Source: Phycisphaerae bacterium (GTDB lineage Bacteria > Planctomycetota > Phycisphaerae > FEN-1346 > JAACEH01). From it: a DNA stretch of 64,000 nt. The position numbers and the translations under genes are program-made. Location of the stretch: assembly GCA_041690105.1 (NCBI GenBank), contig JAWLHX010000001.1, forward strand, positions 14,939 to 78,938. Reading direction: 5' to 3'. How positions within the stretch are numbered: the first letter of the stretch is position 1; the number at the start of each line of letters is the position of its first letter. Shown here in pieces: positions 30,228-62,917 of the stretch. The notes under the pieces are model-generated. The model saw only the letters and a program-made list of their open reading frames with translations. It had not been told where the DNA came from and ran no database searches.

Positions 30228-30577
30228 TTACCTCATTTCCTCTGCTGGCAACTCCCTGCGCAAGGACTCGCAAGGTCGGACAACCCTCACAGCCCGGAGG
30301 CCGCAGACAACCGGCGGTCTCCGCCCCGTCTGTTGCGAGCACAATTGTCGTGACAGCGTCACGACAGTCCCCTTCAACCACACCTAATTCCGAATACTGG
30401 CCAGAACAGCCAGCCCCCGGACTGTTCGGCGCGTCTTGGCATGATGATCGGGTGGAATTATAGAGTCTGCAAGCATCTTTCACAAGCATTCCCCTTCACC
30501 CGACTTCGCCAGCATCCTACAGGTAGCGATCTGGAGATTCGCTTGGCAACCATGTCGCCTTCTGGCATAATCCCGGC

Positions 30578-37509: not shown

Positions 37510-37865
37510 GAACTGTGTCCCCTGTACCGCGGACGCGCGGCACTCCCAAGTTATTCTAAGAAACCACACGGAGAATGCAATACTTAGAGCTACACCGTCT
37601 TGTTTTTGTGTGCTACCGCCACCTGCTGCTCCCGCATGTACGGCACCAGCTTGTTGAGCAGGTCGTGCCGCTTCTCGCAGTCGCAGGCCGAGGGGGACGC
37701 TGCGGCCGGATCGGCCCGCGTAGGAGTCCCCAGAATGCGGTTTTTCGCCTCAAGTCTCAAAGTCTCATGTTCTTTCGTCCTGCACCCCCTAGGGTCACGA
37801 GTATGAACGGTTCATCCGCAATTACCATAGCCAGTTCTGCGGACGCTGGGAGCGGTAGCCGGCCC

Positions 37866-40780: not shown

Positions 40781-43147
40781 TTACTGTTCGAACGTCAACC
40801 CGCCATCACCGGCCATATCCACCAGCCGGTCGGTATTCTCGGCAGTCTTCTCCGCCGCCTTGGCGGTCCGCTCCGCGGCCGATGCACCGCCGATGCTGAG
40901 GCCCTGCAGAGCGACGGCGCTGAAGGTGCCGATGGTCGCGAACTTCGACTGCACCTCGGCCACGCCCTTGGCCAGCCACGGGAACATATCCGTGTTGGGC
41001 TGTATCTTCGGCCCGCCCTGCTTCGCCCCGCCTGGCTTGCCCGGTGCCTCTTGCCCCGCCGGCGTCTGCTTCTTCTTCGTCTCGGCGATGGCGTCCTGCC
41101 ATTCCTTCCGGGCCGCGTCAACTTCGTCCTGGGCCGCGGCGATCCGCTGGTCGTATTCATCGTCAAGGGCCTGCTTTTTGGCCTCCTGCTCGGCCGTGAG
41201 CTGGTCCATGACGGCATTGTGCAGCGATTCCTCCTGACGACGTTCGGCGTCGCGCTGGGCCTCGCGGGCCCGGACGGCGCCATTGGCCTGCTCGTCAACC
41301 TTCTTGTTCTCCGCCTCCAGCCAAGCGTCGGCCCCGGCGTTGGCGGTATTGGAGTCGAAGCTGTCGTCAAAGAGACCCTTCAGCCAGTTCCAGGACTTCG
41401 AGACCTGCGCCCCCGCCCAGTTCCAGGCTTTGCCGATGCCCTGGCAGAACCGCGTCCAGGTGGTCGAGAGGAAGCTGGTCGTTTCGATCCAGGCAATCTC
41501 CAGCCCGTGCCAGACCGTCTCGGCCGCCCGCACCGCTCCGTAGAAGGCGTCGTAGGCCAGGCGGATGAAGAAGTTGCGGAAGTCGAGCCATAGCTTCGAG
41601 AGCCAGGCGATACCCTTCTGCCACTGGAGCTTCAGCGTCAACCACAGCACCTTGGCCGCCAGACCGATGTCGCCCGAAGCCAGGGCCGCACCGATGGCGC
41701 CAAAGGCCTCGCCCGCGTCGGCTGCCAGATCGCCGAAGACGCCCTTCAGCCATTCCAGAGCCTTGCCGCCCGCGCCGGTCCAGTAGAGGATGGCCGCACC
41801 AAGCGCCACGACGCCCACAATCACCAGGCCGATGGGCGAAAGGATCGCCCCGAGAATTGAGCCCGCCACGCCGAGCACCGTGCCCAGCACTGTGACAATA
41901 GTTGCCAGCCCGCCGATGGCCGTGGCCACCACGCTGGCGGCCAGCCCGAGGCCGATGAGTACCGCGCCCACTGCCGCCACGCCGACCGCCACTTTGGCGA
42001 TGATGACCACCAACGGCTTGTTGGCCTTGACGAATCCGGTCACAAAGCCCGCCGCTTTGCTCAGCCAGTCAGCAATGTCCGAAATGGCCGGTGCCAAAGC
42101 GTCGCCGATAGAGAGGGCAATGCCCTCAACCGCCGACCAGAACCGCCGCAAGGCTCCGCCGATGCCGGCATCCATCTCCGTGGCCGTCCGCGCCGCCGTG
42201 CCTGCCGCATTGTCGATGGCCTCGTTCAGCCGGTCGAATGACGCCCCCGTCAGCTTGGCTGCACCGGCAATGGCCCGGTCGCCGAAGAGTTCCGACAAGA
42301 GCGACACGCGCTCGGCCTGCCCCATGTTCTGCATGGCCTGGCCCACATCCGAAAGGATCGCCGAGACCGTCCGCAGGTTGCCGCCGGCATCGGTTACAGC
42401 CACGCCCATTCCTTCCAGCGTCTTCTGCACCTGGGGATTGGCGATCTGGAGCATGACCCGCTTCAGGGTGTTGCCGGCCATGGAGCCCTTGATGCCGAAG
42501 TTGGCCAGTGCTCCCAGCGTCTTGGCGGTCTCCTCCAGCGTCAGGCCGTAGGTCGAGGCCACCGGGGCAGCGTACTTCATGGACTCGCCCAGATCGGTGA
42601 TGGTCTGGGCGGAGCCATTGGCCGTGGCCGTCAGCACATCGGCCACGCGGCCCATCTCGGCAGCCTCCAGATCGAAGGCCCGCAGCGACGCTCCGGCGAT
42701 GTCGGCGGCCTCCGAAAGCTCGACACCCGTAGCCCGCGAGAGGTTCAGGATGTCGCCGATGGAGGCGTTGATCTCGTCCGACGAGAATCCCGCCCGCCCG
42801 AGTTCGGTCATGCCGGCGGCCACCTGGGCGGCGGTGAAGCTGGTGGTGCGGCCCAGTTCCTTGGCTGTCTCGGTGAGCATCTCAAACTGTTCGGCCGAGG
42901 CCCCGGTGACGGCCTTGACCGTCCGCATCTGGTCGTCGAAGGCCATAAAGACGCGGGTCGCCAGGGCGAAGCCGCCGGTCATGGCCGCCCCGGCAGCGAA
43001 GACTCGCGTGCCAGCCGAACGCAGCGTGCGGCCGAAGGCCTGAAGCTTCCGCTGCGCCGCCCGCAGCCCGCGCACGAGCTTTGAGTCGTCGGCGAAGAGC
43101 TCGACGAAGGCGCGACCGGCGCGGATGGAACCAGCGCTGTTTGCCAT
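40781..43147 (-). CDS. Phage tail tape measure protein (TP901-type core)
   Basis: FTAAQVAAGMTELGRAGFSSDEINASIGDILNLSRATGVELSEAADIAGASLRAFDLE...TDLGESMKYAAPVASTYGLTLEETAKTLGALANFGIKGSMAGNTLKRV, Gly-rich TM helices and C-terminal coiled coil. 788 aa. Confidence 0.85.
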   Translation of the reverse strand: MANSAGSIRAGRAFVELFADDSKLVRGLRAAQRKLQAFGRTLRSAGTRVFAAGAAMTGGFALATRVFMAFDDQMRTVKAVTGASAEQFEMLTETAKELGRTTSFTAAQVAAGMTELGRAGFSSDEINASIGDILNLSRATGVELSEAADIAGASLRAFDLEAAEMGRVADVLTATANGSAQTITDLGESMKYAAPVASTYGLTLEETAKTLGALANFGIKGSMAGNTLKRVMLQIANPQVQKTLEGMGVAVTDAGGNLRTVSAILSDVGQAMQNMGQAERVSLLSELFGDRAIAGAAKLTGASFDRLNEAIDNAAGTAARTATEMDAGIGGALRRFWSAVEGIALSIGDALAPAISDIADWLSKAAGFVTGFVKANKPLVVIIAKVAVGVAAVGAVLIGLGLAASVVATAIGGLATIVTVLGTVLGVAGSILGAILSPIGLVIVGVVALGAAILYWTGAGGKALEWLKGVFGDLAADAGEAFGAIGAALASGDIGLAAKVLWLTLKLQWQKGIAWLSKLWLDFRNFFIRLAYDAFYGAVRAAETVWHGLEIAWIETTSFLSTTWTRFCQGIGKAWNWAGAQVSKSWNWLKGLFDDSFDSNTANAGADAWLEAENKKVDEQANGAVRAREAQRDAERRQEESLHNAVMDQLTAEQEAKKQALDDEYDQRIAAAQDEVDAARKEWQDAIAETKKKQTPAGQEAPGKPGGAKQGGPKIQPNTDMFPWLAKGVAEVQSKFATIGTFSAVALQGLSIGGASAAERTAKAAEKTAENTDRLVDMAGDGGLTFEQ

Positions 43148-49711: not shown

Positions 49712-51787
49712 TTACGCCTCGCCCTTGGCCTTTACACCGCCCCGCGGGTCCTGCAGAGCCACGCCGAAGTCGTGATAACCGCGCATCTGGACGCCGAGGA
49801 CGTTGAAGTCGGCCTCCGCCGTCTCGATGGTGGGCGACTCCTGGCCATTGAGGAACGCCACCTCGATGACCGGCAGGTCGCCCGGGTCGGCCAGCAGGTA
49901 CCAGGCTTTTGAACTTGCGCCCGTGTAGCGGCTGTTGCTCAGGTAGCGGCTGACCTCGGTCCGGAACTTCCCGGCGTGCGGGTTGGCCACCGGGTACTTG
50001 GTGCTGGAGGTCGTATCGCGAATCTCCAGACTCTTGTGCAGCACCATGGCCATGGCCGACAGAGCCGTGGGTACCAGCAGGATGCTGGGCATGATGCCGA
50101 TCGGCTTGTTGTCGGCGTCGACCTGATCCATGAAGGTCACTTCGCCCTTCGTCAGACCATCGATCCCCAGCACTGTGTCGGCGCCACTGACGTAATTGGC
50201 GTTACCGGCGGAGAAAAAGCTGCTGTTGGCCAGGAATACCGACCAGAAGACGTCGTTGATCTTCAGCCCCGAGCCGCGGCCCAGCTTCCTGGGCACCGTG
50301 GTGATGGCCCCGAGATCATCATTTATGATGTCGCGGCGATCCACTGAGAGCATCAGGCCGTAGGTGTCGGCCCTGTTGGCGTAGCTTTCCTCCCCGAGCG
50401 TTCCGTGCTTCAGTTCGCCGCCGGGGGCCACGATTTCATACTGGTCCTTGCCGACCAGCCGGTAGCTGGTGACCGTCTTGAAATCCCGCACGCTGCGCAG
50501 AGCGCAGATGTTCCGCCAGACCCGCTCCACGCTGAAGAAGCCATCAAGCAGAAACTTGTTGGCCACGTTCGACAGGATGCCGCCGATGTCGACCGTCGAG
50601 AAACCAGCCTGAATGTCGGCAAAGGCATGGCGCAGCACCGCCCGGCTGTCGCGGAACGTGCGGCCCGTGTAGCCGTTGGCCCAAGCGGCCTCCAGCAGCA
50701 GTTCCTGCAGCCCCAGGCCACCCCGGAAGCGCTTGTCAGCGGCGTCGAGGGTCTTTTCGTCGAACTCCTTCTCCACGCCCTCAAACCTGGCGGAGATCAT
50801 GCAGGCCGCTTCCAGCAGACGCCCGCTCATCGGGTTATCCGGTACGTGGGCCGCAGGCGCCTTGGGCCTTGAGGCCCTGAGTACTTCCAGTTCTGTCTTC
50901 GTCTCGTCCCAGCCCTCCTCGATGGCTTTGGCCTCGATTTCGGCGAACCTGCCGTTGCAGATCCGCCGGATGGCGCTGATGCGGTTGGTTTCAAGCAGCG
51001 CCCGGGCACGGATCTCCTTCACCGGATCGGCCGCCTCCACCGTGCCAGCGGTCTGCTGCTCCAGAGTCTGAACAGGGGCCGCCACCTGACCCTTGCCTTC
51101 GCCGGTCGCCGTCTGCTCGTGGCCTTCCACACTGTTCTGTTCCGTGACAACCTCGGTCGTCTCGTTCGTCACCACGTCCATATGCTCTTTCTCCCTGGCG
51201 GCTCCTGTGCCCGCCGCGATACTGGCTGACGTCTGATCGTCCGCCCCGTTGCCCACGAAACTCACTTCCGACAGTTGCGACCGCCGAGCCACATTGATCG
51301 GCCCGCTGACCTCCCTGCCGTTGACATTCAAGGTCCTGCCTTCGGGAACGAACTCCACCTCCTGCACGCTCGCTCCGATTGAGGCCTGCCACGGATAGCC
51401 ATTTTCGGCGTCGGCCACCACCTCACGGGCCGCGGCACTTGTCGAACTGACCACACCGGTCACCCGTAGCCGGCCACCGAGTACGTTCACAGCCTCCAGA
51501 TGGCCGACCCGCGCCGTGCGATTGTGATCGAGGTAGACCTTGGCTCCGCCACGGATCGACAGGCCGTCCAGATCGACAACCACCGGAAAACGCCAGCCCG
51601 CGAGGGTCAGGGGACCGCCGGTATAGGCATCCATGTGGAACTTCCGCGGCCGGGCGGGCATGCCTTCGCCACCAGTGACAGCCTCGGCCGCCTCAATATT
51701 GATGTCGGCGCTCAGCGTCAGTTCACGCGGCACGTCGGGTTTCTCCGTCAGCATTCTGGTCATCTTCATCCTTCTCCTCGTTTTCAT
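49712..51787 (-). CDS. Prohead protease - scaffold-like linker - HK97-fold major capsid protein fusion
   Basis: N-terminal ~200 aa are protease-like, followed by an acidic low-complexity linker. The C-terminal ~400 aa carry capsid-like segments (...ARFEGVEKEFDEKTLDAADKRFRGGLGLQELLLE...SYRLVGKDQYEI...). Confidence 0.7.
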   Translation of the reverse strand: MKTRRRMKMTRMLTEKPDVPRELTLSADINIEAAEAVTGGEGMPARPRKFHMDAYTGGPLTLAGWRFPVVVDLDGLSIRGGAKVYLDHNRTARVGHLEAVNVLGGRLRVTGVVSSTSAAAREVVADAENGYPWQASIGASVQEVEFVPEGRTLNVNGREVSGPINVARRSQLSEVSFVGNGADDQTSASIAAGTGAAREKEHMDVVTNETTEVVTEQNSVEGHEQTATGEGKGQVAAPVQTLEQQTAGTVEAADPVKEIRARALLETNRISAIRRICNGRFAEIEAKAIEEGWDETKTELEVLRASRPKAPAAHVPDNPMSGRLLEAACMISARFEGVEKEFDEKTLDAADKRFRGGLGLQELLLEAAWANGYTGRTFRDSRAVLRHAFADIQAGFSTVDIGGILSNVANKFLLDGFFSVERVWRNICALRSVRDFKTVTSYRLVGKDQYEIVAPGGELKHGTLGEESYANRADTYGLMLSVDRRDIINDDLGAITTVPRKLGRGSGLKINDVFWSVFLANSSFFSAGNANYVSGADTVLGIDGLTKGEVTFMDQVDADNKPIGIMPSILLVPTALSAMAMVLHKSLEIRDTTSSTKYPVANPHAGKFRTEVSRYLSNSRYTGASSKAWYLLADPGDLPVIEVAFLNGQESPTIETAEADFNVLGVQMRGYHDFGVALQDPRGGVKAKGEA

Positions 51788-53213
51788 CCTGCGGCTCGGC
51801 CTTCGTCCGCGGCTGCGCCTCGGCCAGGCCCAGTTCCTTCATCAGGGCCAGCTCCTTGGCCCTCTGCCGCAATTCCGTCTCCCAGTCCTTGCCCTGCCGG
51901 GCATATTCCGTGGCCAGCGTGGTTGTGTTGGATGCCAGGCGAGTGGCCTGAGCATTGGCTTCCTTGGCCGGATCAACGTGTTCACGGCCGTCCCAGAACC
52001 ACTGGTGCGGCGCATTTTCCGGCAGCGCCCATCGGTACACCCTCACGGCCTCGGCCAGCCACGCCGTCAGAATCCTGTCCAGCACCAGCGTCTCAACGTG
52101 CGATTGCTCAACCCTGATCGATTTGTAGTAGGTCTGGTGATCCAGTCGCCCCGAGGCATAGTTGTAGCCGCTGGAGTTGCAGGCGGCGATGTTGAACGGC
52201 ATGTTCAGGCAGCGGGCGATTTCATTGAGAATCTCGTGCTTGAACTCGCTGTAAGTCGTGGCCGGCTGCTCCGCCTTGATCTGGCTCGGCTCCCACCCTT
52301 CCGGGCCGAAAACAGCCATGTTCGGCTCGAACTCCATGGTCACGCCGGCATCGACTTCAGCCGCCTCGCCACCGGTGGGGGCGTTTGTCTTCATGAAGAT
52401 CGCCACGTTGGCCGCCGACTCGGCCGCCGCGATCACCGCCAGCGTATAGCGCCTCAGCTGGGCAAAGAGCGGCAGGGCAGGCAGGATGTCTGGCAATCCG
52501 CGTGACTGGCCCGGGCGGTCCTGCCGCAACCAGTGCACCACGGCCTCCGCGGGAATGCGGTCGTAGTCCCGGCCGAAGCAACCGGCACCGTCACCGGGGT
52601 GGGCCTTCAGAACGTGGTATTCCACGGGGTTGCCTGCATCATCAAAGACAATTCCGTCAACCGCATGCCTCCCCGGCGTTCGGTCCGGCGTCGTCACCTG
52701 GTCGGCCTCGACCAGCCGCAGGTCAAGCTGCACCGCGGTATCAAGGGCCGGATTATCAAAGAGCACGGCAAAGGCCTCGCCGTCCTGCGCGCGGGCCATC
52801 CGCATCGTCCGCAACTTGCCGGCCAGATCGACCTCTCGCGCCCAGCGGCAGAACTCCTGCTCGATAACGTGGTTCAGACTGCTATTGAGTCCGTCGCCGA
52901 GCAGCATCTGCAGCCGTGGTCCGGTGCCGATGACGTCATTGGCCAGTGTCAGCACGATGCCACGGGCATAGCTGTTGTTGGCCACTTCATACCGCGCCCG
53001 GCTCCGCAGCACGCGCCGCACTTCCGGGCTGGCAGCCGCGTTGGCTGACAGATGATCGGCATTGGCCCAATGGCGACGATTGTCGGGCGTGGTCTGGGCG
53101 GAGTCGAATCTGGCCCGGACAAACAGTTGCTGCACGGCCGTAATGGCCCGCCGGCGGCGTCTTTCCCCGGCACCCGACCACACGCCCTTGAACTTGTCGA
53201 TAATGCGTCCCAT
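51723..53213 (-). CDS. Phage portal protein (lambda-like family)
   Basis: Start MGRIIDKFKGVW. Size and acidic C-terminal tail are typical of portals. Overlaps the capsid fusion gene start. Confidence 0.8.
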   Translation of the reverse strand: MGRIIDKFKGVWSGAGERRRRRAITAVQQLFVRARFDSAQTTPDNRRHWANADHLSANAAASPEVRRVLRSRARYEVANNSYARGIVLTLANDVIGTGPRLQMLLGDGLNSSLNHVIEQEFCRWAREVDLAGKLRTMRMARAQDGEAFAVLFDNPALDTAVQLDLRLVEADQVTTPDRTPGRHAVDGIVFDDAGNPVEYHVLKAHPGDGAGCFGRDYDRIPAEAVVHWLRQDRPGQSRGLPDILPALPLFAQLRRYTLAVIAAAESAANVAIFMKTNAPTGGEAAEVDAGVTMEFEPNMAVFGPEGWEPSQIKAEQPATTYSEFKHEILNEIARCLNMPFNIAACNSSGYNYASGRLDHQTYYKSIRVEQSHVETLVLDRILTAWLAEAVRVYRWALPENAPHQWFWDGREHVDPAKEANAQATRLASNTTTLATEYARQGKDWETELRQRAKELALMKELGLAEAQPRTKAEPQDENEEKDEDDQNADGETRRAA

Positions 53214-53427
53214 GCTCACACGGCCCCCGGCGGCACGATCTTCACTTTCCGTAGCCCCATGTTGCGGGATGACATGGCCCGCTTGCCCGCCAGATACTTG
53301 TCCGCCGTAATCTGATCCGCCAGCGAGTGCTGCTCCATGCTGCCGGAATCGCCGCTGGCTTTGCGCGGCCCGGCGGCATTCTGCTGAATTGCGTTTTCCA
53401 GTTCTTCCGGCACCTTTATCTCCTTTG

Positions 53428-53502
53428 GACGCGGGAGTTGGACGCGAACCAGCGCAATCGCCTTTTGAGCCCCGCGCTCTGCCAATTGAGCTATCCCGCA
53501 AG
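53428..53502 (-). tRNA. tRNA-like element with encoded CCA; anticodon stem does not pair (probable pseudo-tRNA)
   Basis: Minus strand: TGCGGGA-TA-GCTC-AATTGGCA-GAGC-G-CGGGG-CTCAAAA-GGCGA-TTGC-GCTGG-TTCGCGT-CCAAC-TCCCGCG-T-CCA. Acceptor (7 bp with one G.U), D-arm and T-arm fold well. The anticodon loop is CU-CAA-AA. Positions 39-43 (GGCGA) cannot pair with 27-31 (CGGGG). Confidence 0.35.
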
Positions 53503-53647
53503 CGGACAACGCGACCGTTTGTTGTCCGGTCTGGTTGTGTGGCCTATCTATATCGTCGTCCGAATGTCACGCCAGCGGAAACAGAGGCGACGGAATTGAG
53601 GATTCCAGATCTGGAAAGAAACTGTGCCGAAGGTTATCCTGTTGTCC

Positions 53648-54562
53648 ATGGACTCCAGAAAACAGACATCCCAATACATCCTGCTTGCCGCGGTGATAGT
53701 CGCAGTGAGCGCCGTTGTGTTGCTTTGCGCCGTCGTGGAATGGCAGCAGCCTTCGAGACAACCCACAGTACCTGCAGTTGCTGACGAGCCACGAGCCGGC
53801 GATCCGGTCGTACAGACTGGCCATGATCCTATTCCTGAAGCCTTGCCGGCAACGGCCGCGGATCGCATACATGCCTATGCCGGGCTGCCCCGCTCCACAG
53901 GCCCTGTGACGGTGCTGGTGAACAGCGGCTATGTCGTCGGTTATTGTGACACGCGTCAGAATCCCCTGTGGGTCTGTTACCGTCTATCGCGAGTCGCTCC
54001 GTCCAGGGCTCCGCCCAGGCCAAGCCGCTTCATTACCGACATGCGCACCCAAGCCCGTGTCACGCATGATGCCTACACCCACAGCGGCTACGACCGCGAC
54101 CATATGGCTCCAAACTACGGCATCGCCACTCGCTACGGCGTTGAAACCCAGATTGAGACATTTCGGATGTCCAACGTGGTGCCGCAGACGCCTACGCTCA
54201 ACCAGGGTATTTGGCGGCGACTGGAGCAGCTTGAGGCAGACAAGTATGCCCAGGTGTTTGAGGATGTCTGGGTAATCACGGGCCCGATCTTCGGCGATGA
54301 TGCCCGAAGGCTGCCAAGCGGAGTGTTAATACCAGATGGCTGCTTTAAGATCATTCTGAAGGAGATCGATGGGCATCCGCATGTGCTGGCGTTCATCATA
54401 CCTCAGGACGTTACCACCAAGGCCATCCTTGAATCATATCTGACCAGCGTCAGGGAGATCGAGCGACTGACGGGACTGGATTTTCTGGCTGACCTGCCGG
54501 ACAGTCTCGAAGAGCTGTTAGAAATGCAGACAGCCACAGCCCTGTGGCTGTCGCCCAACTGA
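53648..54562 (+). CDS. Secreted DNA/RNA non-specific endonuclease (Serratia NucA-like)
   Basis: N-terminal signal anchor QYILLAAVIVAVSAVVLLCAVV. Catalytic region DRDHMAPNYGIATRYGVETQIETFRMSNVVPQTPTLNQGIWRRLE, with a DRGH-like motif. GTG 53624 is an alternative start. Confidence 0.8.
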   Translation: MDSRKQTSQYILLAAVIVAVSAVVLLCAVVEWQQPSRQPTVPAVADEPRAGDPVVQTGHDPIPEALPATAADRIHAYAGLPRSTGPVTVLVNSGYVVGYCDTRQNPLWVCYRLSRVAPSRAPPRPSRFITDMRTQARVTHDAYTHSGYDRDHMAPNYGIATRYGVETQIETFRMSNVVPQTPTLNQGIWRRLEQLEADKYAQVFEDVWVITGPIFGDDARRLPSGVLIPDGCFKIILKEIDGHPHVLAFIIPQDVTTKAILESYLTSVREIERLTGLDFLADLPDSLEELLEMQTATALWLSPN

Positions 54563-54968
54563 CGCCCGTCAAAGGATCGTTCGATCCCAGCCAACCGGCA
54601 GATTGGAAGTCCGCCGCCAAAGCCCGTATCTGATAACCGCCGACGATATAAGCCCGATCTGGCAAAGGATATCCACTGGTTCTGAATGCATTCCGAGAGA
54701 ATCCGCCGCTAATATTCGGGCCGCTCATCCTGCAGCCGCTTGGCTAGGTCCACCTGCCGCAAACATCGCACCGTCTGGCCAGAATGGCGGCGACTTTTTC
54801 GTTGCGCTCGCGCGCCGTCATCTCCGGCGGCTTCCTAAGAGCGTACATTGAGCCTCCTTGCCTATATACTGTTAACATACCGGAAACGAAAGCGGTTTGG
54901 TTGTAACGGGCCTTGGATTCCTGGGAAAAACTTGGGGAACCGGGAGAGGACAAGTGGTGAGTAGGTGA

Positions 54969-57900
54969 CTATCGTCCTCGATGTTTTCTCTTGGCTCGTC
55001 TGCATCGCCAACGCCTCAGGAAGCGGGATAGTCGCCTCCATTTTCTGCGACTGCGTTCGGGCAGGGCATTCAGAGGAGTTCTGTAGACGGGACGCGCTAT
55101 GACGGGGCCCGAAAGGGCGCGCGGCATTCTTTCCAGCAACTGCTCGATGAGTTTGGCCGCTTGACGTTCTTTTGGACAGCGGAACCATATCTTCGCGATG
55201 AGTTGGCTCGTCAGGAAGCAGTTCTGGGAGTTCATTGGAACGACTGCGGCAATGAAATCAATGGTGCGCATGGCAGGCTCGCGGTCACCGTCCCAATTGG
55301 CCTCCGAGAACAAGTACACCGCGGCATCTGCCGTCAGCCGTGGTGCGACATAGCCCCAGCTGAATGCTTTTCCGAGAGCTTCATTTACAGCTGTCGAGCC
55401 AAGCTCCCGTGCTGTTGAGACAAGGACGCTCTGTGTCCACACGGACTCAACACCCCAGCTCTGTGCGGCCATAACAGCAACAACAAGATCGTCGGTCCAA
55501 AGCGGGGCCTTCCTCTGGCGGGCAATGGCAATTGCATGGACCGCACCAGCCCCGAGCATCCGAGTTAATGCGGTGCGTTGATCGTGAGGCAGATCGAGGA
55601 CAGCGCTGCCGCCAACCACCTCACAGTCGTGTGCGATCGTTATGATGAGTTCGTCGAGCTGTGCTGCCCAGAGGGCCTCCTGCTCCCGCGAAGACTCCCG
55701 GAACACTGGCCGCCCATCGTGAAATCCCAGATACCCGGCACGCTCTGTGCCTGGGTCATGTTTGCTTCGCAACTCGCGTAGCTGGTGCAGGGAGGCCTCC
55801 GTCACAATGCAACGAAAAGGCAAGTCCCTGAGCCGTGCATGAACGCCGAGCAGGAACAAAGATGCTATTGCAGTTTCATCGAGTACTATGCAGTTGGCTT
55901 CGCGAACGATTATTGCTGACTGTTGCCAGAGGGGCTCGCCCTCCGGACTGCAGCGTACACCGAGATGGCGGCTCTCTGCAAGGTATCCCATGGTTTCCAG
56001 CACTGACCGGCCAAGCAACTGAGCCACAGAAGCGATTGGGATGCCTTGTTGTGCGTAGAGCCCCTCTACGGCGGTCTGTCGCTCATGCTCTTCCTCCAGA
56101 TACTGATACACCTCTCCCAAGGCCGCTTTCGGCTCCGCGATTGTGCCAAGATTGGGTGACACGGTGAAGCGGCGAATCGAAGGGTTGTTGGGAAATGCTT
56201 CCTCGAATCCTTCGAGGCACTCGCGGGCCCTGTATACTATTTTCGACTCTATGCTGATGATCTTATAGTCATGCCCTTGGAAGCTGAAGGTCTCCCCCAC
56301 GGCCTTGCCCAGCATCGCCTCCGCAAGGCCATGATCCGGGGCATACTCATGGCGAGTGACGCTCGGTGTCAGGCCAGGCTCAATGACCGCAACAAGTAAC
56401 CGTCCAGACGCCACCTCTTGGTAGCGAACCGAGCTGTCTGCATCTATCCGTTCGGGCGGGGCGAAGGTGGGCTTTCCCGGAGAGGGGTCAAGAACCGCAC
56501 GGATGAGCGTGTGCTGGGCCGCCTGAACATCGGGGAACTTGCGCCAGAGGTCGTAGGCATAGTTGGCGGCAAGCATGGCATCGGGGCCATGGCGGAGAAC
56601 GTGATAAACAACCGCGCCCGCTTCGGCCGCCGTCAGTTCGGACACCGAGGGTAACTTGACGGCATCCGTTTCCACCAACTCTGGAAAGTTTCGCTCAATG
56701 GCCAGGCTGGAGAGATTGAGACGCATTATCTTGTCGTCTGGGTGTGCCGTCAGCCATTCCTGCATGAGCGATATCGCCTCGCGGTGCTCATGGCACCTGA
56801 TGAGGACATCGGCTTCCGACTCGTAAACATGGCGGGTCACAATGCCATTCGCGCGCAAGGCACGACACAAGGTGAGAATGTAACCGTCGTCCTGAGCAAG
56901 CCTCGCAGTAACTAGAGCACGCTGCGTATCGCTGTTGAACAGCTTCGGGGTCACGATAGTCCGCCACAGCAACAACGACAGCTGATAGTCACCAAGACTG
57001 TGGGCAAGAATGGCGGCTTCTCGGCGGTATTCCCACACACCGCGATCCATCAACTGCGTGATGGCAAGGCCAAGCGCGGACCTGGCCCCTTCCTTGTCAC
57101 CCGCGTTGAACAAGATGCGGGCGAGGATGGTCTCCCGGCAGCCGCTGTCAAGCAACTCCTGCGGTACACTCTCAACGGCGTTCCTCGCATCTTGCGGTTG
57201 AGCCAAGTCGCTAAAGAGCATTGCCAGCAGGCCCACAACATCGGACCGATCTGACTCTGACAGTGCTGGGAGCCGCTGCATCCAAGGCTGGAGCACCGCG
57301 ACGGCCTTCTTCCGGTCACCGTCTGTCCCTCTTTCCCTGAGAAGCACCGCGAGAAGAAATGATGCCCGCTGGTGGGATGCAAGTGCCGGCAGCGACTCAA
57401 GAAGGGCAATGGCTTGATCCCGGTGCCCTTCATGATCCAACATCGCAGCCATAACCACGGCGATTTCGGGTTCGCCCGGATTTCGCCGATGCGATTCTCG
57501 TATGTCCTCGCCCGCCTCCGTGGTCTTACCCAGTAAGCGTCGTGCCGACGCACGATTCAGATAAGCCGCGGGCAGCAGTTTGGCCGGGTCAGAGGCAGGA
57601 ATCAGCTGAATGGCCTCGTTCAGCAGAGACTCTGCTTCTTGCATGCTTTCACGGCTCTCTGGAATCAAACCCCTGTCAACATCGGGCAACGCACGCAGTC
57701 GCTCTCTCTTCAGCAGAGCCCCAGACAGGTTGACGAGACCGTACGGCCATTCTGGTGCTCCGTGCACGGCGCGCCGCCCGTATTCCACGGCCTTTTCCAC
57801 CAAATCCTGCTCAAAGGCTAGGCCACCAAGAGCGCCCGCCACTTCAGCATCGTTCAGAAGGGCGTCAGGGATCAAGGATTCCGCTTCTTCTAGGGAGGTC

Positions 57901-59339
57901 CCTTCAGGAAGCGACGCGATTAGGAGCCAATGTGCTCGACCAAAGCTAGGCTCTTGTTCACACAACTGCCTCGCCAGCCCGTGTGCAATTGGGTACTCTC
58001 TTCGGAGAACATAGGCCATTATCCGAAAAGCGAGAGCGTCGCGAGTGTCTCGAAGCGCTGCCGCCTGAAGGTACTGCTCTGCCGCTTTGTCCATCTCACC
58101 CATGCTGTAATAAGCATTCCCGATATTGGCGCGAACGCGATACTTGAGCCTTGGTGTAAGCCTATTTCCCTCACGCTGCTCAATCCTTTCGTATAGCTCG
58201 ACGGCCGTGTGCGGTTCCCCGCGTTTCACGTAACGGAAGATCTCATCGATCTCCGTGTCAACTGGGGTCCGTTCATTACCAGCGACGTCTGACCCAGCGG
58301 ATTGCCCCTGCGATGAAGCCAAAGCACTCCAGCTTCTGCCTGTCGCGTTCTGAATTGCGCCCGTCACGGCGCGCTGGGCTTCCGCCAATATAATTGGGCT
58401 GTCCTTGATCACGTCCTGAAGCGCGGCTACGGCCATCGTCTGAGCAACTCGTGCGACTTCCTCGCCGTCGGAACGTACAGCCCGGAGTCGTTCGACATCC
58501 AGTCGCAGTTGAGCCATGAAAGGAATAATTGCTTCATGGTTTCCCGACTTTGGATAGAAGATAGGACGAATCCTGTATCGCCGCTCGATTCGCTCACGGA
58601 GGGCCGACTCCTCGCCCGCCGCGGGCTGCTCCAATAGAGCAAAATGTTTCGGTTCCCCCTCACCCAACACTGCCGCCACGAAACGCAGGGGCTCAAGGTC
58701 ACTTTCGTTCATGCCACAGCCGATAAACACGCATCGACACACTGTAAAGATGGTAGCCAACGAGTGGCGGGCTAAAGTTTCTCGATGGTACCTGCGATTG
58801 TAGTCATCGAGAGTCAATATGATGCCCGAGGACTTGCCGACCGAACCATGCACGTGTACCACGTTTCTGTCAGCGATACGAGAAGTCAGGTTGTCCAGGA
58901 ATTGCCGAAGGAGGGCTTCTTCCTGAAAATCGAAATGCCGGGCCTCAAGCCCAGCGACCTCCAGGTGAGCGGCTTCCAGAACGTAATCATAGTTGAACGT
59001 CAGGTAATGGGTGAAAGGCAGCCGCAAGAGGTCGCGGTGGAAATCACTTAGACGGGCCTTCGCGGGTGCAAATATGCCTGCAACCATAGCCAGCAAAGCA
59101 TCGCGCCCCAGTAGTTCTTCACAGCAGGCTGCCTCGACCAATGCGTCTTTGCTCTGTCGAAGCGATGCTAGCCTCAGGGCCGCTTCCGGATGAGTCCGGA
59201 GTATCTCGCCGGAAATGAACTTCAACAAACCATCCCAAGAGGGATAGCCAGCACCCATGCTGCTCCCTGCGCCAACCATGGCGATGGCGCCATTGGCAAT
59301 CGCCTGCACCAGGCTCTCGTAGTCTTCTCGATTCTGCAT
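54969..59339 (-). CDS. 1456-aa SIR2-like (SIR2_2) - TPR array - GreA/B C-terminal-like - PIN-like protein; candidate single-gene anti-phage defence system carried by the prophage
   Basis: aa 1-230: GAGSSMGAGYPSWDGLL, THYLTFNYDYVLEAA, VVHVHGSVGKSSGIILTLDDY (SIR2_2 signatures TxNYD and HxHGS). aa ~300-950: TPR-like repeats. aa ~970-1035: EYAPDHGLAEAMLGKAVGETFSFQGHDYKIISIE (GreA/B-C FKBP-like motif). aa ~1140-1400: CIVLDETAIASLFLLG...LWTDDLVVAV (PIN-like acidic residues). Arg-rich C-terminal tail. No P-loop. Confidence 0.75.
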   Translation of the reverse strand: MQNREDYESLVQAIANGAIAMVGAGSSMGAGYPSWDGLLKFISGEILRTHPEAALRLASLRQSKDALVEAACCEELLGRDALLAMVAGIFAPAKARLSDFHRDLLRLPFTHYLTFNYDYVLEAAHLEVAGLEARHFDFQEEALLRQFLDNLTSRIADRNVVHVHGSVGKSSGIILTLDDYNRRYHRETLARHSLATIFTVCRCVFIGCGMNESDLEPLRFVAAVLGEGEPKHFALLEQPAAGEESALRERIERRYRIRPIFYPKSGNHEAIIPFMAQLRLDVERLRAVRSDGEEVARVAQTMAVAALQDVIKDSPIILAEAQRAVTGAIQNATGRSWSALASSQGQSAGSDVAGNERTPVDTEIDEIFRYVKRGEPHTAVELYERIEQREGNRLTPRLKYRVRANIGNAYYSMGEMDKAAEQYLQAAALRDTRDALAFRIMAYVLRREYPIAHGLARQLCEQEPSFGRAHWLLIASLPEGTSLEEAESLIPDALLNDAEVAGALGGLAFEQDLVEKAVEYGRRAVHGAPEWPYGLVNLSGALLKRERLRALPDVDRGLIPESRESMQEAESLLNEAIQLIPASDPAKLLPAAYLNRASARRLLGKTTEAGEDIRESHRRNPGEPEIAVVMAAMLDHEGHRDQAIALLESLPALASHQRASFLLAVLLRERGTDGDRKKAVAVLQPWMQRLPALSESDRSDVVGLLAMLFSDLAQPQDARNAVESVPQELLDSGCRETILARILFNAGDKEGARSALGLAITQLMDRGVWEYRREAAILAHSLGDYQLSLLLWRTIVTPKLFNSDTQRALVTARLAQDDGYILTLCRALRANGIVTRHVYESEADVLIRCHEHREAISLMQEWLTAHPDDKIMRLNLSSLAIERNFPELVETDAVKLPSVSELTAAEAGAVVYHVLRHGPDAMLAANYAYDLWRKFPDVQAAQHTLIRAVLDPSPGKPTFAPPERIDADSSVRYQEVASGRLLVAVIEPGLTPSVTRHEYAPDHGLAEAMLGKAVGETFSFQGHDYKIISIESKIVYRARECLEGFEEAFPNNPSIRRFTVSPNLGTIAEPKAALGEVYQYLEEEHERQTAVEGLYAQQGIPIASVAQLLGRSVLETMGYLAESRHLGVRCSPEGEPLWQQSAIIVREANCIVLDETAIASLFLLGVHARLRDLPFRCIVTEASLHQLRELRSKHDPGTERAGYLGFHDGRPVFRESSREQEALWAAQLDELIITIAHDCEVVGGSAVLDLPHDQRTALTRMLGAGAVHAIAIARQRKAPLWTDDLVVAVMAAQSWGVESVWTQSVLVSTARELGSTAVNEALGKAFSWGYVAPRLTADAAVYLFSEANWDGDREPAMRTIDFIAAVVPMNSQNCFLTSQLIAKIWFRCPKERQAAKLIEQLLERMPRALSGPVIARPVYRTPLNALPERSRRKWRRLSRFLRRWRCRRAKRKHRGR

Positions 59340-59425
59340 TGCTCGTTGATTATAGTGATGAAGCCAGAAATCAACAATACGAAGATGACAAAGTTCCGTA
59401 ACGTTGCCGTGCTACGCGTGCGTCC

Positions 59426-59446
59426 GCTGTTCGCTAACAGCGAACG
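59426..59446. promoter_or_regulatory. Palindrome ~90 bp upstream of the SIR2-TPR gene start
   Basis: GCTGTTCGCTAACAGCGAAC contains GTTCGCT-aac-AGCGAAC (7-bp arms). CGCTAAC is repeated at 59451. Confidence 0.25.
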
Positions 59447-59797
59447 TGCTCGCTAACCGCCATCGAGGAATTGGTGCTTCGAAGAGAGGTTCTCTCGGGC
59501 ACCCCAGCGAGAGGAAAATTGTTAACCCGAACCGGTGGCGGAAGAGAGCAAATGGAGAGTTCTCGCCGCTGTGGGCGGCCGTCGGGCGGGTACGAGCCTG
59601 GCGGGAAACGCTTCACCCCAAACAGAGAGCGCCGGGCATCGCGAGCCGGAACCGCCGTAAGCCTTTGCAACCAATAGGTTATAGCGATTCTGCTGCGGAC
59701 TATCGGGGACCCGAATACGAGCCAACACTAAAAGCCCACCATTGGTGGGCTTTTAGTGTTGGCTCCCCTATCTGGATGCGGATGTACGGCTCACCGG

Positions 59798-60376
59798 TTA
59801 ACGGCTCATAGGTGTCTCGAACTCTGCTACCAGAGCTTTAACCTGCTTGGCCAGCTGATCGACCGATTCCTGAAGCCGATTGATCGCCCCAAGCACCAAC
59901 AGCTGCTGTGCTTCTCCGTTTTCCATTCTCTGCCATATTCTGGCCAGTTCAGTTGAAAGGTCAAGCTGCGGAAACAGCGTCTTGATTGCCTCCAGTTGCC
60001 TGAGCGTCTGGCTGTCGGCCACGCTGGCGACGGCCTCGTGGCGTTCGTCGCGCGGCTCGTGCCGGTGGTAAGCATACTTATGCGGCGCTCTTTGTCGGAA
60101 CCAGGCGTGACGATTAGCCACATTCTGCGGCTTGAGGTGCGGCTGAAGCTGCGGGTGCTTCTCCAAAAGGGCTCTGCGGATCATCTCCAGCACCTTCGGC
60201 AGTGGCGGGCGGGGCTCCAGTTTCATGGCCGCCTCCCAAGTCCGCTCAAACACCAGATCCATCTGCCATGTCCAGTAAAGACGCCCGTCGCGGCCCACCT
60301 GCACAACGTTATTGCTGCCCATTGGTTCCCTCGTTTCTCGCGTCATGCGCAACATCGCCTCAACAACCAGGTGCAC
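59798..60376 (-). CDS. Hypothetical protein between terminase and defence gene
   Basis: 192-aa ORF with no recognisable domain; start uncertain. Confidence 0.4.
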   Translation of the reverse strand: MHLVVEAMLRMTRETREPMGSNNVVQVGRDGRLYWTWQMDLVFERTWEAAMKLEPRPPLPKVLEMIRRALLEKHPQLQPHLKPQNVANRHAWFRQRAPHKYAYHRHEPRDERHEAVASVADSQTLRQLEAIKTLFPQLDLSTELARIWQRMENGEAQQLLVLGAINRLQESVDQLAKQVKALVAEFETPMSR

Positions 60377-60437
60377 ATGAAGCCAAAAGGTTAAGCATTC
60401 ATCCAGTTAATTCCTGCAATAGCAGGCACTTATGTCA

Positions 60438-60635
60438 TTAATCCAGTATCCGCTCCGAAGTTGTCGCCCGCTGACCGCAGTAGCGGCAATGGCGATAACG
60501 GATAATGCGGCCGCTGGCCCGAGTGGTATGGTCCACGGGCATGTCGCGGCAGCCGCACTTGCGGCACTCCAGACCGCTGGTCTTCTCCGGCGGCCACTTC
60601 TTACGCGTCACATCTGACGTCGTCACCAAATTCAT
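60438..60635 (-). CDS. Cys4 zinc-ribbon protein (Ogr/Delta-like architecture)
   Basis: CRKCGC...x22...CRYCG; 65 aa. ATGA coupling to the terminase stop. Confidence 0.5.
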   Translation of the reverse strand: MNLVTTSDVTRKKWPPEKTSGLECRKCGCRDMPVDHTTRASGRIIRYRHCRYCGQRATTSERILD

Positions 60636-62917
60636 CTCCTCCTCAGGTCATCCTGCGTGTACCGCTTCCGCTGCCGCGCGGGTTTCTCTTCCATGCCCGG
60701 TGCCCGCACGCCGCACATCGAGGCCGCGGCGGCGCAGCCCACCAGGCAGTCGAACCAGTGGTTGTCGGGCTTGGATGGCCGTAGCGACCATTCATGCACC
60801 ACGCGACCATGGCCCTGCGTCTCGACCCACGTTTCGGAGTGAGCCACATGTTCGGCAAGCAACTCGTGATCGCGACCCTTGCGGCCGAAGATCGATAGCG
60901 AACCCGGATCGCCGGCGGCCGTGGCAAAGCCGCTGTGGACGAACGATTTCCAGTAGTTGACGTCCACCGCAACGTGCGGGAACTCAGCCGTCCTGCCGAC
61001 GTTCGGCACGTACCAGAAGTGACCGTGCACTTCGCCGGGCTTGCGGGCGTAAGTTGACATGGGCTTGCGGCCGCTCTTGATGCCCACGCCCTTGGAGAGC
61101 ATCATCACGGCTCCGCCGACCTTGTGCTTGGCGTCCGCCACGAGCCCCGGCTTGTACCCAATGTCCACCAGCAGCCGGTCGATTCTCGTCAAGCCATCGC
61201 CGCGCTTGAAGTCCCGCCCCAGTTGCGTGGAGATGAGCCGCTCCAGCCCGGCGCGTATGGCGCCGTCGCCGCCCATGCCCGGAAAGGCCCGCCCCAGCGT
61301 CCTGCGGGCCTGATACATGGTGAAGTAGCCCTGCGACTGCTCCGGAAAAGTGCCATAATCAACCACATAGCCGGTGAAATTCTCCTCCCAGGCGCAGATG
61401 CACCAGTAGAGCAGCTTTTCGTGGACGTCGATGAACATGGTCAGCCTGGTGGCCGCCAGCGGCACCTCGCCACGGGCTCGGCCGTTTATCTTCTCCATCA
61501 CCTGCTCGGGCCGCAGCAGATCGTCGTGCACCTGCTCCTGCATCGGCTCGTTCTGGTATTCGGCGAAGAAGGCCTCTTCGTCCCGCAGCTTCAGGTTCAT
61601 GGCGTGCTGCAGGGCCGAAAGTTCCTTCCTGGCGTCGAACCGCTCCGGCCAGGCAACCACGGCACCGGCGTCCATGGCCTCGCGATTGGCACGATAAAAC
61701 TCCGTTGCCTCGTCACCGCCATGACCCTGTCGCAGGCTATCGGCCCTGATCGTCGCGTACTGCTGCCACAGCCGTTCGTTTGCGGGGAAGCTATAGATCA
61801 GCTTGGTGCATTCAGCCTGCCATTCCGGGCACTTCTCGTGATCAAGCACCTGGTCGGCGAGGTCGGCTTCATAGATCTTGGTGCAGGTCAGCACACCGGC
61901 GATCTCTTCGCCGGGCCCGGCCAGACCCAGCACGTCACCGTTCAGCAGCTGCAGGCGATACTTCGTCTGAGTCGGCGAGCGGGCCGACTGCCGTGTCTGC
62001 GGATCATCCAGCAGCACCAGCGAGGGCCGAATAGTCGAGCCGTCCATGCGGGTATGCTGCTGGCCGCGCATGTTGGCGTCGAGGCTGGTGATGGTGATGA
62101 TCGAGCCGCTTGATGGGCTGGTCTCCATTCCCGCCTCGCGCAGGGCCTGCGGCAGGTGTTCGGCCTCCACGGTCGGAAAGACCAGCTTGTCCTGACCCCA
62201 CAGGAGGTGCGTCAGACGCCCACGGATGTGCTGCTGGAGTTGCCGCTTTGATGAATTCTCGAGGCTGCGCAGCGGATAGACCGCCTCCGGGAAGTCAGCC
62301 AGCAGGCCGGGATTCTCGAGGATATACTTCTTGATCGGCAGCAGCAGATCCTTGGCCCGCTCGTCCGAGCCACCGATCAGGCAGACAAACGGCCGGGAGC
62401 CGATCAGCACGGCCCACAAGGCCGAGAGGCGGGCCAGCGTCGTCTTGCCAGACCCACGCGGCATGGCGAAAGCGAACAACCCGCCATCCTTGACCGCCCG
62501 CTCGATCTTCGACAGCACCTTCAGATGGTCGTCGCTCCAGTTCCTGTAGAAAGCCCGCGGAAAATAGGTCTCGCAGAACAGACGCAACGAAGCACTTGTG
62601 GCCAGCCGCCGCTCATAGTCCTCGATCTCCGGGATGGGGAAGATGTCCTGGGCGGCCTTGGTACCGGCCCGGTTCTTTTCGGCCTGCCGCCGCCTGGCCT
62701 CCACGTAGTCGATGGGCCTTGTCCGCGGCCGGTCCAGTTCACGCGCCAGCCATGCGGCGTAGCGCACCAGGTGGATACGCTTTCCATCGCCCACACGAAA
62801 GGCAGCCTTATCCATCTGCCGGCGAAGGCGCGAACGATCTATCACCGTGCCCAGGGGCGTGGCGTTGACGATTTGCAGCAGTTCCGTCTGCGACAGGTTG
62901 GTCACATCAATCGGCAC
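60632..62917 (-). CDS. Phage terminase large subunit (GpA-like)
   Basis: Walker A-like FAFAMPRGSGKTTLARLSALWAV. The 761-aa size matches lambda gpA-type terminases. The N-terminal ~70 aa contain a Nu1-like wHTH (HLVRYAAWLAREL). Confidence 0.8.
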   Translation of the reverse strand: MPIDVTNLSQTELLQIVNATPLGTVIDRSRLRRQMDKAAFRVGDGKRIHLVRYAAWLARELDRPRTRPIDYVEARRRQAEKNRAGTKAAQDIFPIPEIEDYERRLATSASLRLFCETYFPRAFYRNWSDDHLKVLSKIERAVKDGGLFAFAMPRGSGKTTLARLSALWAVLIGSRPFVCLIGGSDERAKDLLLPIKKYILENPGLLADFPEAVYPLRSLENSSKRQLQQHIRGRLTHLLWGQDKLVFPTVEAEHLPQALREAGMETSPSSGSIITITSLDANMRGQQHTRMDGSTIRPSLVLLDDPQTRQSARSPTQTKYRLQLLNGDVLGLAGPGEEIAGVLTCTKIYEADLADQVLDHEKCPEWQAECTKLIYSFPANERLWQQYATIRADSLRQGHGGDEATEFYRANREAMDAGAVVAWPERFDARKELSALQHAMNLKLRDEEAFFAEYQNEPMQEQVHDDLLRPEQVMEKINGRARGEVPLAATRLTMFIDVHEKLLYWCICAWEENFTGYVVDYGTFPEQSQGYFTMYQARRTLGRAFPGMGGDGAIRAGLERLISTQLGRDFKRGDGLTRIDRLLVDIGYKPGLVADAKHKVGGAVMMLSKGVGIKSGRKPMSTYARKPGEVHGHFWYVPNVGRTAEFPHVAVDVNYWKSFVHSGFATAAGDPGSLSIFGRKGRDHELLAEHVAHSETWVETQGHGRVVHEWSLRPSKPDNHWFDCLVGCAAAASMCGVRAPGMEEKPARQRKRYTQDDLRRR

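Follow-up and report, generated by a model that had tools for sequence, protein, structure and literature searches.

What is a protein of 1456 residues, joining an N-terminal SIR2 domain to a C-terminal PIN domain, doing between the terminase and portal genes of a prophage, and does it represent a new kind of phage defense system? The gene lies at positions 54969..59339 (minus strand) of the window, which is the 64,000-nucleotide stretch of Phycisphaerae DNA analyzed here, and the ORF list and translation show that it is complete, with an ATG start, 1456 amino acids plus a stop, and an uninterrupted 4.4-kb frame in ∼58% GC sequence. An identical protein is present in an NCBI-derived collection (P0001, encoded on a contig of 168.6 kb), and the closest sequenced relatives share 35–52% identity. 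The order of domains is SIR2_2, TPR solenoid, GreA/B-C, PIN (PF20698), and a helical, Arg-rich tail. A preliminary description had recognized these four domains from sequence, and all are recovered with Pfam, PADLOC, PDB alignment and an AF2 model; each of the motifs that it quoted is found in the translation. No PADLOC v2 or PHROGs model describes the full-length protein.

The same description put the system forward as a candidate for novelty, and this does not stand. Kaur et al. 2021 (Kaur, Iyer, Burroughs & Aravind; eLife 10:e70394; PMC8195603) described a constant TPR-GreAB-C-PIN core ('TGP') with swappable N-terminal effectors that include SIR2, and their supplementary table lists a SIR2+TPR+GreAB-C+PIN protein of 1448 aa (NLE27049.1) that is stand-alone and matches the protein studied here in domain order and length. 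Pfam has a dedicated model for the TGP PIN domain, PF20698, and one family member, Agp, has been tested (see below). With a PF20698 PIN domain, a GreA/B-C domain upstream of it, a long TPR array, and an effector at the variable N-terminus, the protein is a member of this catalogued, predicted anti-phage family in its SIR2-effector form. It differs from the SIR2 form of Kaur et al. in being Planctomycete prophage cargo and in carrying Q1186 and H1268 in its PIN domain. A literature search found no experimental test of any SIR2-TGP protein.

Clustered at 50% identity, the core family comprises 1482 clusters when matches up to E≤1e-3 are counted and 205 when the limit is E≤1e-30. Of the 150 representatives that score best, 38 begin with an Mrr-type restriction endonuclease, at least 27 with SIR2, and 11 with a transmembrane N-terminus, with PadR plus Mrr, metallophosphatase, DUF4062, and NNH2 among the others; N-terminal swapping in this manner is characteristic of defense effectors. 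The gene is stand-alone, with different neighbors at every homologous locus examined. One homologue (L005) is flanked by a type I restriction-modification system (HsdR, HsdS, HsdM) and an AAA_13 protein, another (L004) adjoins an HSDR_N protein and an integrase, a third (L001) adjoins a serine recombinase, and a fourth (L007) appears frameshifted. The homologues are thus associated with defense islands and mobile elements.

The SIR2_2 NADase-type domain occupies aa 1–290 (58470..59339, minus strand), as defined by Pfam, PADLOC, alignment to ThsA, and the AF2 model, in which this region adopts an alpha/beta fold. Pfam SIR2_2 matches aa 111–260 with an E value of 1.3e-17 and 64.7 bits (cut-off 24.5), in agreement with the initial assignment, and the PADLOC ThsA, Dsr1, LmuA and Dsr2 models match aa 8–270 only (ThsA E 1e-15). 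The landmarks are a GAGSS loop at 23–27, the catalytic N116 within TFNYD, and H164 within VHVHGS. In a PDB search the domain aligns to ThsA (6lhx; E 2e-8), with N116 and H164 corresponding to ThsA N112 and H152. This copy keeps both the catalytic Asn and the catalytic His, and T114, N116, Y117, H162, H164 and G165 are invariant in 27/27 SIR2-TGP proteins. The CxxC zinc module of true sirtuins is absent from the domain, and its predicted output is NAD+ hydrolysis.

A low-confidence linker (aa 291–358; 58266..58469, minus strand), with AF2 pLDDT below 50 at 291–298 and 333–354, connects the SIR2 domain to a TPR-type alpha-solenoid at aa 359–950 (56490..58265, minus strand), the presumed sensor and scaffold. 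Pfam TPR_1, TPR_14, TPR_19 and TPR_8 match within aa 370–880, and TPR-S weakly. The AF2 model of aa 1–960 (pLDDT 88) confirms the TPR array noted earlier as an all-alpha solenoid of ∼590 aa and ∼28 helices at ∼359–950, with pLDDT mostly above 90, for which Foldseek reports structural matches to OGT, Ski3, Ctr9, IFT-A TPRs, and DSR2. No P-loop NTPase model (NACHT, NB-ARC or AAA) matches the protein in Pfam, NCBIfam or PADLOC, and the single Walker-A-like string, ARRLLGKT (599–606), falls within a helix of the TPR array, and homologues do not conserve it; the initial exclusion of STAND and Avs proteins is thus correct.

The GreA/GreB C-terminal (FKBP-like) domain, at about aa 962–1035 (56235..56456, minus strand), includes HGLAEAMLGKAVGETFSFQGHDYKIISIE and sits directly on the N-terminal side of the PIN region, as the TGP family requires. 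All of the GreA/B-C residues that are invariant in the subfamily are kept, and the fold suggests that the domain may bind RNA polymerase. A helical connector (aa 1036–1147; 55899..56234, minus strand), delimited from AF2 secondary structure, leads to the PIN domain and is conserved family-wide in a representative search, in which matches span query positions 1–548.

The PIN domain itself, of the PF20698 family, covers aa 1148–1295 (55455..55898, minus strand) and its fold is modeled with high confidence. Of the five usually acidic positions three are retained (D1154, D1283 and D1284), and two are substituted: position 1186, which is E or D in 69% of the family, is Q, and position 1268, which is E or D in 87%, is H. 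The site thus reads D-Q-H-D-D and is partly degenerate in this copy. Across the SIR2-TGP proteins, 21/27 are acidic at all five positions. H at 1268 also occurs in the intact family members P0009, P0013 and P0034, which suggests that it is a tolerated variant. Beyond the PIN domain there is a conserved C-terminal helical domain (aa 1296–1420) and an Arg-rich terminal helix (aa 1421–1456; together 54972..55454, minus strand), in which W1444 is invariant and Arg accounts for 14 of the 36 final residues. Both the PIN and the Arg-rich tail assignments are sustained. The suggestion that the protein has two potential effectors fares less evenly: the SIR2 catalytic residues are intact, whereas the case for PIN is weakened by the loss of two of five acidic positions. 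Because Q1186 and H1268 replace the usual acidic residues, we take SIR2 as the main effector, and it is probably the working one in this copy, while PIN may be a weakened nuclease or an RNA-binding module. A VapBC-type toxin-antitoxin system is ruled out, as the PIN domain here is one part of a protein of 1456 aa, with no antitoxin-like gene conserved next to it.

The gene is prophage cargo, as had been proposed from its position. Pfam and PHROGs identify the large terminase at 60632-62917 and the portal at 51723-53501 (both minus strand), and low GC and comparison with related phages define a 6.9-kb insertion between them (53501..60437), with a GC content of 0.575–0.59 compared to 0.63–0.65 in the phage. 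Its edges are a conserved Zn-ribbon ORF following the large terminase and a tRNA-like element preceding the portal. The slot can be described as running from terminase/Zn-ribbon to tRNA-Met/portal, and the adjoining phage tRNA is degenerate. In five related phages the terminase-portal gap is only 0.2–0.5 kb and lacks the insertion, and another related phage (L024) carries a restriction-modification-like cassette of Dcm, a GHKL-ATPase and Vsr in the same slot. The cargo also contains a membrane-anchored non-specific nuclease (53624-54562, plus strand) and a 192-aa ORF (59798-60376, minus strand) that has no Pfam or PHROGs match and no counterpart at homologous loci. The SIR2-TGP gene is on the same strand as the phage late genes.

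Three sequence elements lie upstream of the gene. A promoter-like TTGTTG-17 nt-TATAAT (59349..59377, minus strand) was read directly from the sequence. Only 9 nt separate its end from the ATG, so that a transcript made from it would have almost no leader; a consensus scan omits the site because the -35 matches at only 3/6 positions. An inverted-repeat search found two further elements, both palindromic, for which a role as operator, as first suggested, is putative. Upstream of the promoter-like site is a small palindrome, CGTCCGCTGTT-N4-AACAGCGAACG (59421..59446), with 11-nt arms and one mismatch; an equivalent repeat arises in 12/500 shuffles. A perfect 23-nt inverted repeat (59719..59765) lies between the 192-aa ORF and the SIR2-TGP gene, directly after that ORF; it gives only spurious hairpin-family matches in Rfam and resembles a hairpin or terminator more than it does an operator.

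Several characterized systems share parts of this protein. Agp, of the Bab/Agp system of E. coli ECOR25, protects against phage T5, and resistance is lost on mutation of GreA/B-C (Ibarlosa et al., bioRxiv 10.1101/2024.11.07.622273). Agp shares the TPR-GreA/B-C-PIN core and is also prophage-borne, in a defense hotspot, but it uses an N-terminal BASS11 amyloid motif to signal to a separate Bell-domain pore-former, Bab, whereas the Phycisphaerae protein has a fused SIR2 domain that is folded in the AF2 model. No Bab-like or Bell-domain gene was found among its cargo neighbors. ThsA of Thoeris has the closest solved SIR2 domain, with the catalytic Asn and His aligned; however, the protein lacks a C-terminal SLOG/STALD ligand-binding domain, the PADLOC ThsA match is restricted to aa 9–245 (profile 12–232 of 478), and there is no gene for a ThsB TIR partner within the cargo, so it is not a Thoeris ThsA. 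DSR1 and DSR2 are likewise single polypeptides in which a SIR2 domain of the NADase type at the N-terminus precedes a long sensor built of helical repeats, and DSR2 senses phage tail tube protein. Foldseek matches to DSR2 structures have an E value of about 1e-8, but homology is limited to the SIR2 region, and DSR2 lacks GreA/B-C and PIN. DSR2 identity is ruled out, as the match to NCBIfam NF041819 reaches 26.3 bits where 1400 are required and covers aa 18–184 only. In GreA/GreB-type secondary-channel factors an N-terminal coiled-coil reaches the RNA polymerase active site; that coiled-coil of GreA, GreB, Gfh1 and Rnk is missing here, and the GreA/B-C domain is embedded in 1456 aa.

A single-gene defense role, as first suggested, remains the best reading, and we think it probable that the gene is a SIR2-TGP moron of a Phycisphaerae-like Planctomycete temperate phage and acts as a stand-alone abortive-infection guard of the lysogen. 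The protein would protect the lysogen from superinfecting phages, with the TPR solenoid and GreA/B-C domain as the sensor. GreA/B-C could dock on RNA polymerase at the rim of the secondary channel and/or report phage-induced changes in the polymerase. Activation, probably via oligomerization, would turn on the SIR2 NADase, and the infected cell would cease to support phage growth as NAD+ is depleted. The anti-phage function, the binding of RNA polymerase, the NADase output and the trigger are all predicted.

Kaur et al. proposed a two-tier model (PMC8195603) in which PIN is the first line, cleaving transcripts extruded from phage-engaged RNA polymerase, and the effector, here SIR2, is a suicidal back-up. 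The well-modeled PIN fold, the three retained aspartates, and the full acidic site in most SIR2-TGP proteins are consistent with this, but with two usually acidic positions substituted the model may not apply as written. Moreover, work on Bab/Agp saw no activity of Agp independent of the effector, and the PIN mutant was unstable (bioRxiv 10.1101/2024.11.07.622273); we regard the full two-tier model as rather unlikely for this copy. A similarly doubtful proposal is that PIN has lost its nuclease activity and is repurposed as an RNA or transcript sensor in a pure 'RNA polymerase guard' with NAD+ depletion as its sole output, and that the terminase-portal slot is a dedicated, recombination-prone defense hotspot of Phycisphaerae phages.

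Could the protein instead serve the phage, as a prophage addiction or toxin module or as a device that binds RNA polymerase and so commandeers host transcription in the lytic phase? The strand shared with the late genes leaves room for this, yet homologues occur in non-phage defense islands beside type I RM and AAA_13 genes, and the cargo is evidently dispensable, since five related phages have none at this site. The absence of a conserved antitoxin-like partner (the 192-aa ORF included) and the gene's own promoter-like site and upstream hairpin also argue against it, and we consider such a role quite improbable. Decay of the gene into inactive cargo, to which the partly degenerate PIN site, the frameshifted homologue, and the degenerate tRNA might point, is harder still to reconcile with an unbroken 4.4-kb frame at about 58% GC, the retention of all subfamily-invariant SIR2 and GreA/B-C residues, and the recurrence of H1268 in intact proteins; it seems very unlikely. 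Least credible of all is a housekeeping sirtuin-type deacetylase or polymerase-regulating transcription factor. A SIR2 domain joined to a fold that binds the RNA polymerase secondary channel might suggest one, but the SIR2_2 domain is of the ThsA/DSR type without the sirtuin zinc module, relatives swap the N-terminus for nucleases, and the gene is sporadic, on mobile elements and in a low-GC insertion absent from related phages.

The gene is therefore a good specimen and no new kind of system; a repurposed PIN domain and a dedicated cargo hotspot, if true, would be new details rather than a new class. The TGP family, with ∼1500 clusters at 50% identity, is nearly unstudied, Agp being the sole tested member, and its proteins have been proposed as guards of RNA polymerase against phage takeover. 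This copy contributes a Planctomycetota example of prophage cargo, a defined insertion hotspot, and a natural variant of the PIN site. Because loss of NAD+ is easily measured, the single-gene SIR2 form offers a convenient test of whether GreA/B-C reports on RNA polymerase.

The target gene is a single unbroken open reading frame on the minus strand (54969–59339), beginning with ATG and encoding a product of 1456 amino acids whose translation contains all of the motifs quoted in the preliminary description. The SIR2-like N-terminus assigned there is confirmed by Pfam SIR2_2 (residues 111–260, E 1.3e-17), by the PADLOC models for ThsA, Dsr1, LmuA and Dsr2, which match the first ~270 residues only, and by ThsA 6lhx (E 2e-8), the closest sequence among solved structures. 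The ThsA alignment pairs N116 and H164 of the target protein with N112 and H152, respectively; PDB entry 8bto has Ala in place of ThsA N112. The site is intact, and T114, N116, Y117, H162, H164 and G165 are invariant in 27 full-length relatives with a SIR2 N-terminus, in which G23, A24, G25 and S27 are near-invariant. No CxxC zinc module was found in the target SIR2 domain. Together, the ThsA homology, the conserved residues and the lack of a zinc module indicate that, as judged from its sequence, this is a SIR2 domain of the ThsA/DSR kind. Such domains hydrolyse NAD+ in phage defence.

The remainder of the protein also has the predicted domain order. Several Pfam TPR models match between residues 370 and 880, and an AlphaFold2 model of residues 1–960 (27 sequences, mean pLDDT 88) shows SIR2 as an alpha/beta fold, then a disordered linker (291–354) and a continuous alpha-solenoid (359–950), in agreement with a TPR array following SIR2. 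Foldseek matches of this model include the TPRs of OGT, Ski3, Ctr9 and IFT-A, and also DSR2, in which helical repeats likewise come after a SIR2 domain. Because the Pfam GreA_GreB match taken alone is not significant (E 0.22), the GreA/B-C call rests on structural comparison using an AlphaFold2 model of residues 930–1456 (20 sequences, pLDDT 88.8, pTM 0.78), which upholds it; in a profile comparison, residues 962–1022 fall on E. coli GreA 83–143 in the expected register. The PIN-like domain is recognised by PF20698, entitled 'PIN domain associated with the TPR-GreAB-C-PIN system' (residues 1152–1292, E 3.3e-14), and is followed by a conserved helical domain and the Arg-rich terminal helix previously noted, Arg making up 14 of the final 36 residues. 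The reported absence of a P-loop also stands: none of the NTPase models run against the protein matches, and the sole Walker-A-like string, ARRLLGKT (599–606), lies inside a TPR helix and shows no conservation.

The suggestion that this architecture is novel was not borne out. Kaur et al. 2021 (eLife, PMC8195603) defined a system whose constant region combines TPR repeats with a GreA/B-C domain and a new version of PIN, and in which one of 13 effector domains ('PNPase, TIR, SIR2' among them) takes the place of the N-terminal EAD10. NLE27049.1 (1448 aa), which has the same domain order, appears in the source-data table of that study as 'SIR2+TPR+GreAB-C+PIN'. Ibarlosa et al. (bioRxiv 2024.11.07.622273) named the core 'TGP' and found that T5 infection is aborted by Bab/Agp, a prophage-borne system of E. 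coli ECOR25; the target gene, too, is prophage-borne. Resistance is lost in the Agp GreA/B-C mutants S628L and L634P, and also in the PIN mutant D762N, but that mutant protein is unstable; no Agp activity was seen without Bab (bioRxiv 2024.11.07.622273). The target protein is thus a new member of a family defined in 2021, with one validated relative. Literature searches returned no experimental work on any SIR2-TGP protein (the form with a SIR2 N-terminus), and no solved structure of the TGP core was found.

Several other affiliations were considered and rejected. With the NCBIfam Dsr2 equivalog the protein reaches 26 bits, where the cut-off is 1400, and is therefore not a DSR2; STAND/Avs membership was rejected since no NTPase model matches, and the protein was likewise excluded from ThsA, VapBC and Bab/Agp. 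PHROGs contains no family matching it, and PADLOC v2, proposed for checking this domain order, recognises the SIR2 part only.

The family became visible only in an exhaustive search of representatives, because a word-indexed homologue search gave only five relatives when queried with the full protein and one when queried with the C-terminal part. By contrast, the exhaustive search with residues 900–1456 returned 1482 clusters at 50% identity (E<=1e-3), 205 of them at E<=1e-30, with matches usually spanning the whole 550-aa C-terminal region. Among the best 150 representatives the core is constant and the N-terminus variable: 38 carry an Mrr-type restriction endonuclease, 27 a SIR2 domain (total length 1350–1510 aa) and 11 a transmembrane N-terminus, and others have PadR plus Mrr, a calcineurin-like phosphoesterase, DUF4062 or the NNH2 helical domain.

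Homologous loci were sought with a six-sequence alignment in species-representative genomes, a collection outside which the window's own genome lies. Full-length SIR2 relatives occur in MAGs of Phycisphaerae, other Planctomycetota and Hydrogenedentales, and the target protein is 35–52% identical to its nearest relatives. Their neighbours vary by locus, yet are genes of the sort that defence islands and mobile elements usually carry, such as type I RM genes and an AAA_13 protein (locus L005), an HSDR_N protein and an integrase (L004), and a serine recombinase (L001). In the Planctomycetota MAG locus L007 (3870–8256) the SIR2-TGP homologue is split into three ORFs, which could reflect frameshifts, a pseudogene or an assembly error. 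Ten more loci (L008–L017), most of them in Myxococcota and other soil MAGs, resemble the SIR2 part only (residues ~3–280, 31–36% identity), and the SIR2 module is therefore also found with different C-terminal architectures. At L008 there is a terminase homologue ~8 kb away.

The target gene lies among phage genes, mostly on the minus strand. The large terminase (60632–62917, −) is followed by a 65-aa Zn-ribbon ORF (CxxC...CxxC; 60438–60635, −) overlapping its stop codon, a 192-aa ORF with no Pfam or PHROGs match (59798–60376, −), a perfect 23-nt hairpin directly after it (inverted repeat, 59719–59765), the target gene, a convergent Endonuclease_NS gene (53624–54562, +), a tRNA-like element found by Rfam (53429–53500, −) just upstream of the portal, the lambda-type portal itself (51723–53501, −) and a protease-capsid fusion (49712–51787, −), with the tape measure gene further on (40781–43147, −). 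The fusion joins head protease and major capsid protein in a 691-aa ORF (PHROG 4523, 'major head and protease protein'; Pfam Phage_capsid_4). The Endonuclease_NS product (Pfam E 1.3e-35) has an N-terminal hydrophobic membrane anchor, a DRDH motif and an uncertain start codon, and could be a nuclease that is secreted or sits in the membrane. The window also contains chromosomal genes, namely a type II secretion operon. Its GspE has 62–68% identity with proteins from MAGs of Phycisphaerae and Planctomycetota, and we therefore take the phage genes to be a prophage, or the remnant of one, in a Planctomycete.

Comparison with ten IMG/VR contigs whose portals are 54–76% identical shows how the region is organised in related phages. 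Terminase and portal are 0.2–0.5 kb apart in five of them (L020, L021, L025, L026 and L028), which carry nothing in that slot; the gap contains the Zn-ribbon ORF in L020, L021 and L028 and an ARAGORN tRNA-Met in L021 and L028. Conservation of the Zn-ribbon ORF behind the large terminase extends to L020, L021, L024 and L028 (44–64% identity), and L024 has 6.4 kb of different cargo in the slot (3356–9735): a C5 cytosine (Dcm) methylase, a 524-aa protein without assignment, an 898-aa double GHKL ATPase and a Vsr nuclease. GC content is 0.575–0.59 across 53–60 kb, versus 0.63–0.65 in the phage genes. These gaps, the L024 cargo and the drop in GC place the target gene in a 6.9-kb insertion (53501–60437) at a slot, between terminase/Zn-ribbon and tRNA-Met/portal, that by this comparison is a variable cargo hotspot of the phage lineage. 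The 192-aa ORF was absent from the related phages and the homologous SIR2-TGP loci, and the nuclease was likewise common to none of those loci. The placement of the gene as prophage cargo is thus corroborated, and its reading as defence cargo is well supported by both the related phages and the homologous loci.

The tRNA-like element scores 29.8 bits with the Rfam model (gathering score 29), and an ARAGORN scan of the window found no tRNA. In related phages this position is occupied by a tRNA-Met(CAT) (L021 3450–3526, L022 1404–1477, L024 9735–9808 and L028 9636–9707), and with its CTCAAAA anticodon loop and broken anticodon stem the window element looks like a degenerate descendant of it. Since the listed portal start (53501) overlaps this element, the true start is probably further downstream. 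Ahead of the target gene, a TTGTTG-17 nt-TATAAT site read from the sequence ends 9 nt before the ATG, which would imply a nearly leaderless mRNA, and an 11-nt palindrome (59421–59446) is modestly unusual (12 of 500 shuffles). On present evidence neither of these, nor the 23-nt hairpin, can be called the operator that had been proposed.

Past the prophage's tail end, the window contains a second group of conflict genes (16940–37569). It includes a 2355-aa RHS-repeat protein (16940–24007, −) preceded by an 854-aa ORF without match, a Schlafen AlbA_2/HATPase_c_4 protein (28768–30489, −) and two MmeI-like fused restriction-methylase genes (30578–33673, + and 34375–37569, −).

Kaur et al. 2021 proposed that GreA/B-C contacts the RNA polymerase beta-prime coiled-coil at the secondary channel, that the extruded transcript is cleaved by PIN, and that failure of the PIN step unleashes the N-terminal effector. 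One possibility is that this full two-tier scheme operates here with an active PIN. We compared five PIN positions across 115 aligned relatives: 1154 (acidic in 93%), 1186 (69%), 1268 (87%), 1283 and 1284 (both 100%). The target protein reads D-Q-H-D-D; all five are acidic in 21 of the 27 SIR2-TGP proteins, and H at 1268 recurs in the relatives P0009, P0013 and P0034. Because of this altered site, SIR2 is taken as the main effector, on the residues compared. The target protein would then protect the lysogen against other phages, with the TPR and GreA/B-C part sensing infection via RNA polymerase and activation turning on NAD+ hydrolysis, so that the infection is aborted.

Three further explanations compete with this defence model. 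The altered PIN site might mark a gene in decay, to be weighed against its unbroken frame and intact SIR2 site. The gene might have a phage-serving or addiction role, to be set beside the empty slots of five related phages and the defence-island neighbours of the relatives. It might also be a housekeeping regulator, to be weighed against its place in a variable cargo slot. SIR2-driven defence is the preferred reading. As a clean specimen consisting of one gene, the target lends itself to tests of the RNA polymerase-guard idea.
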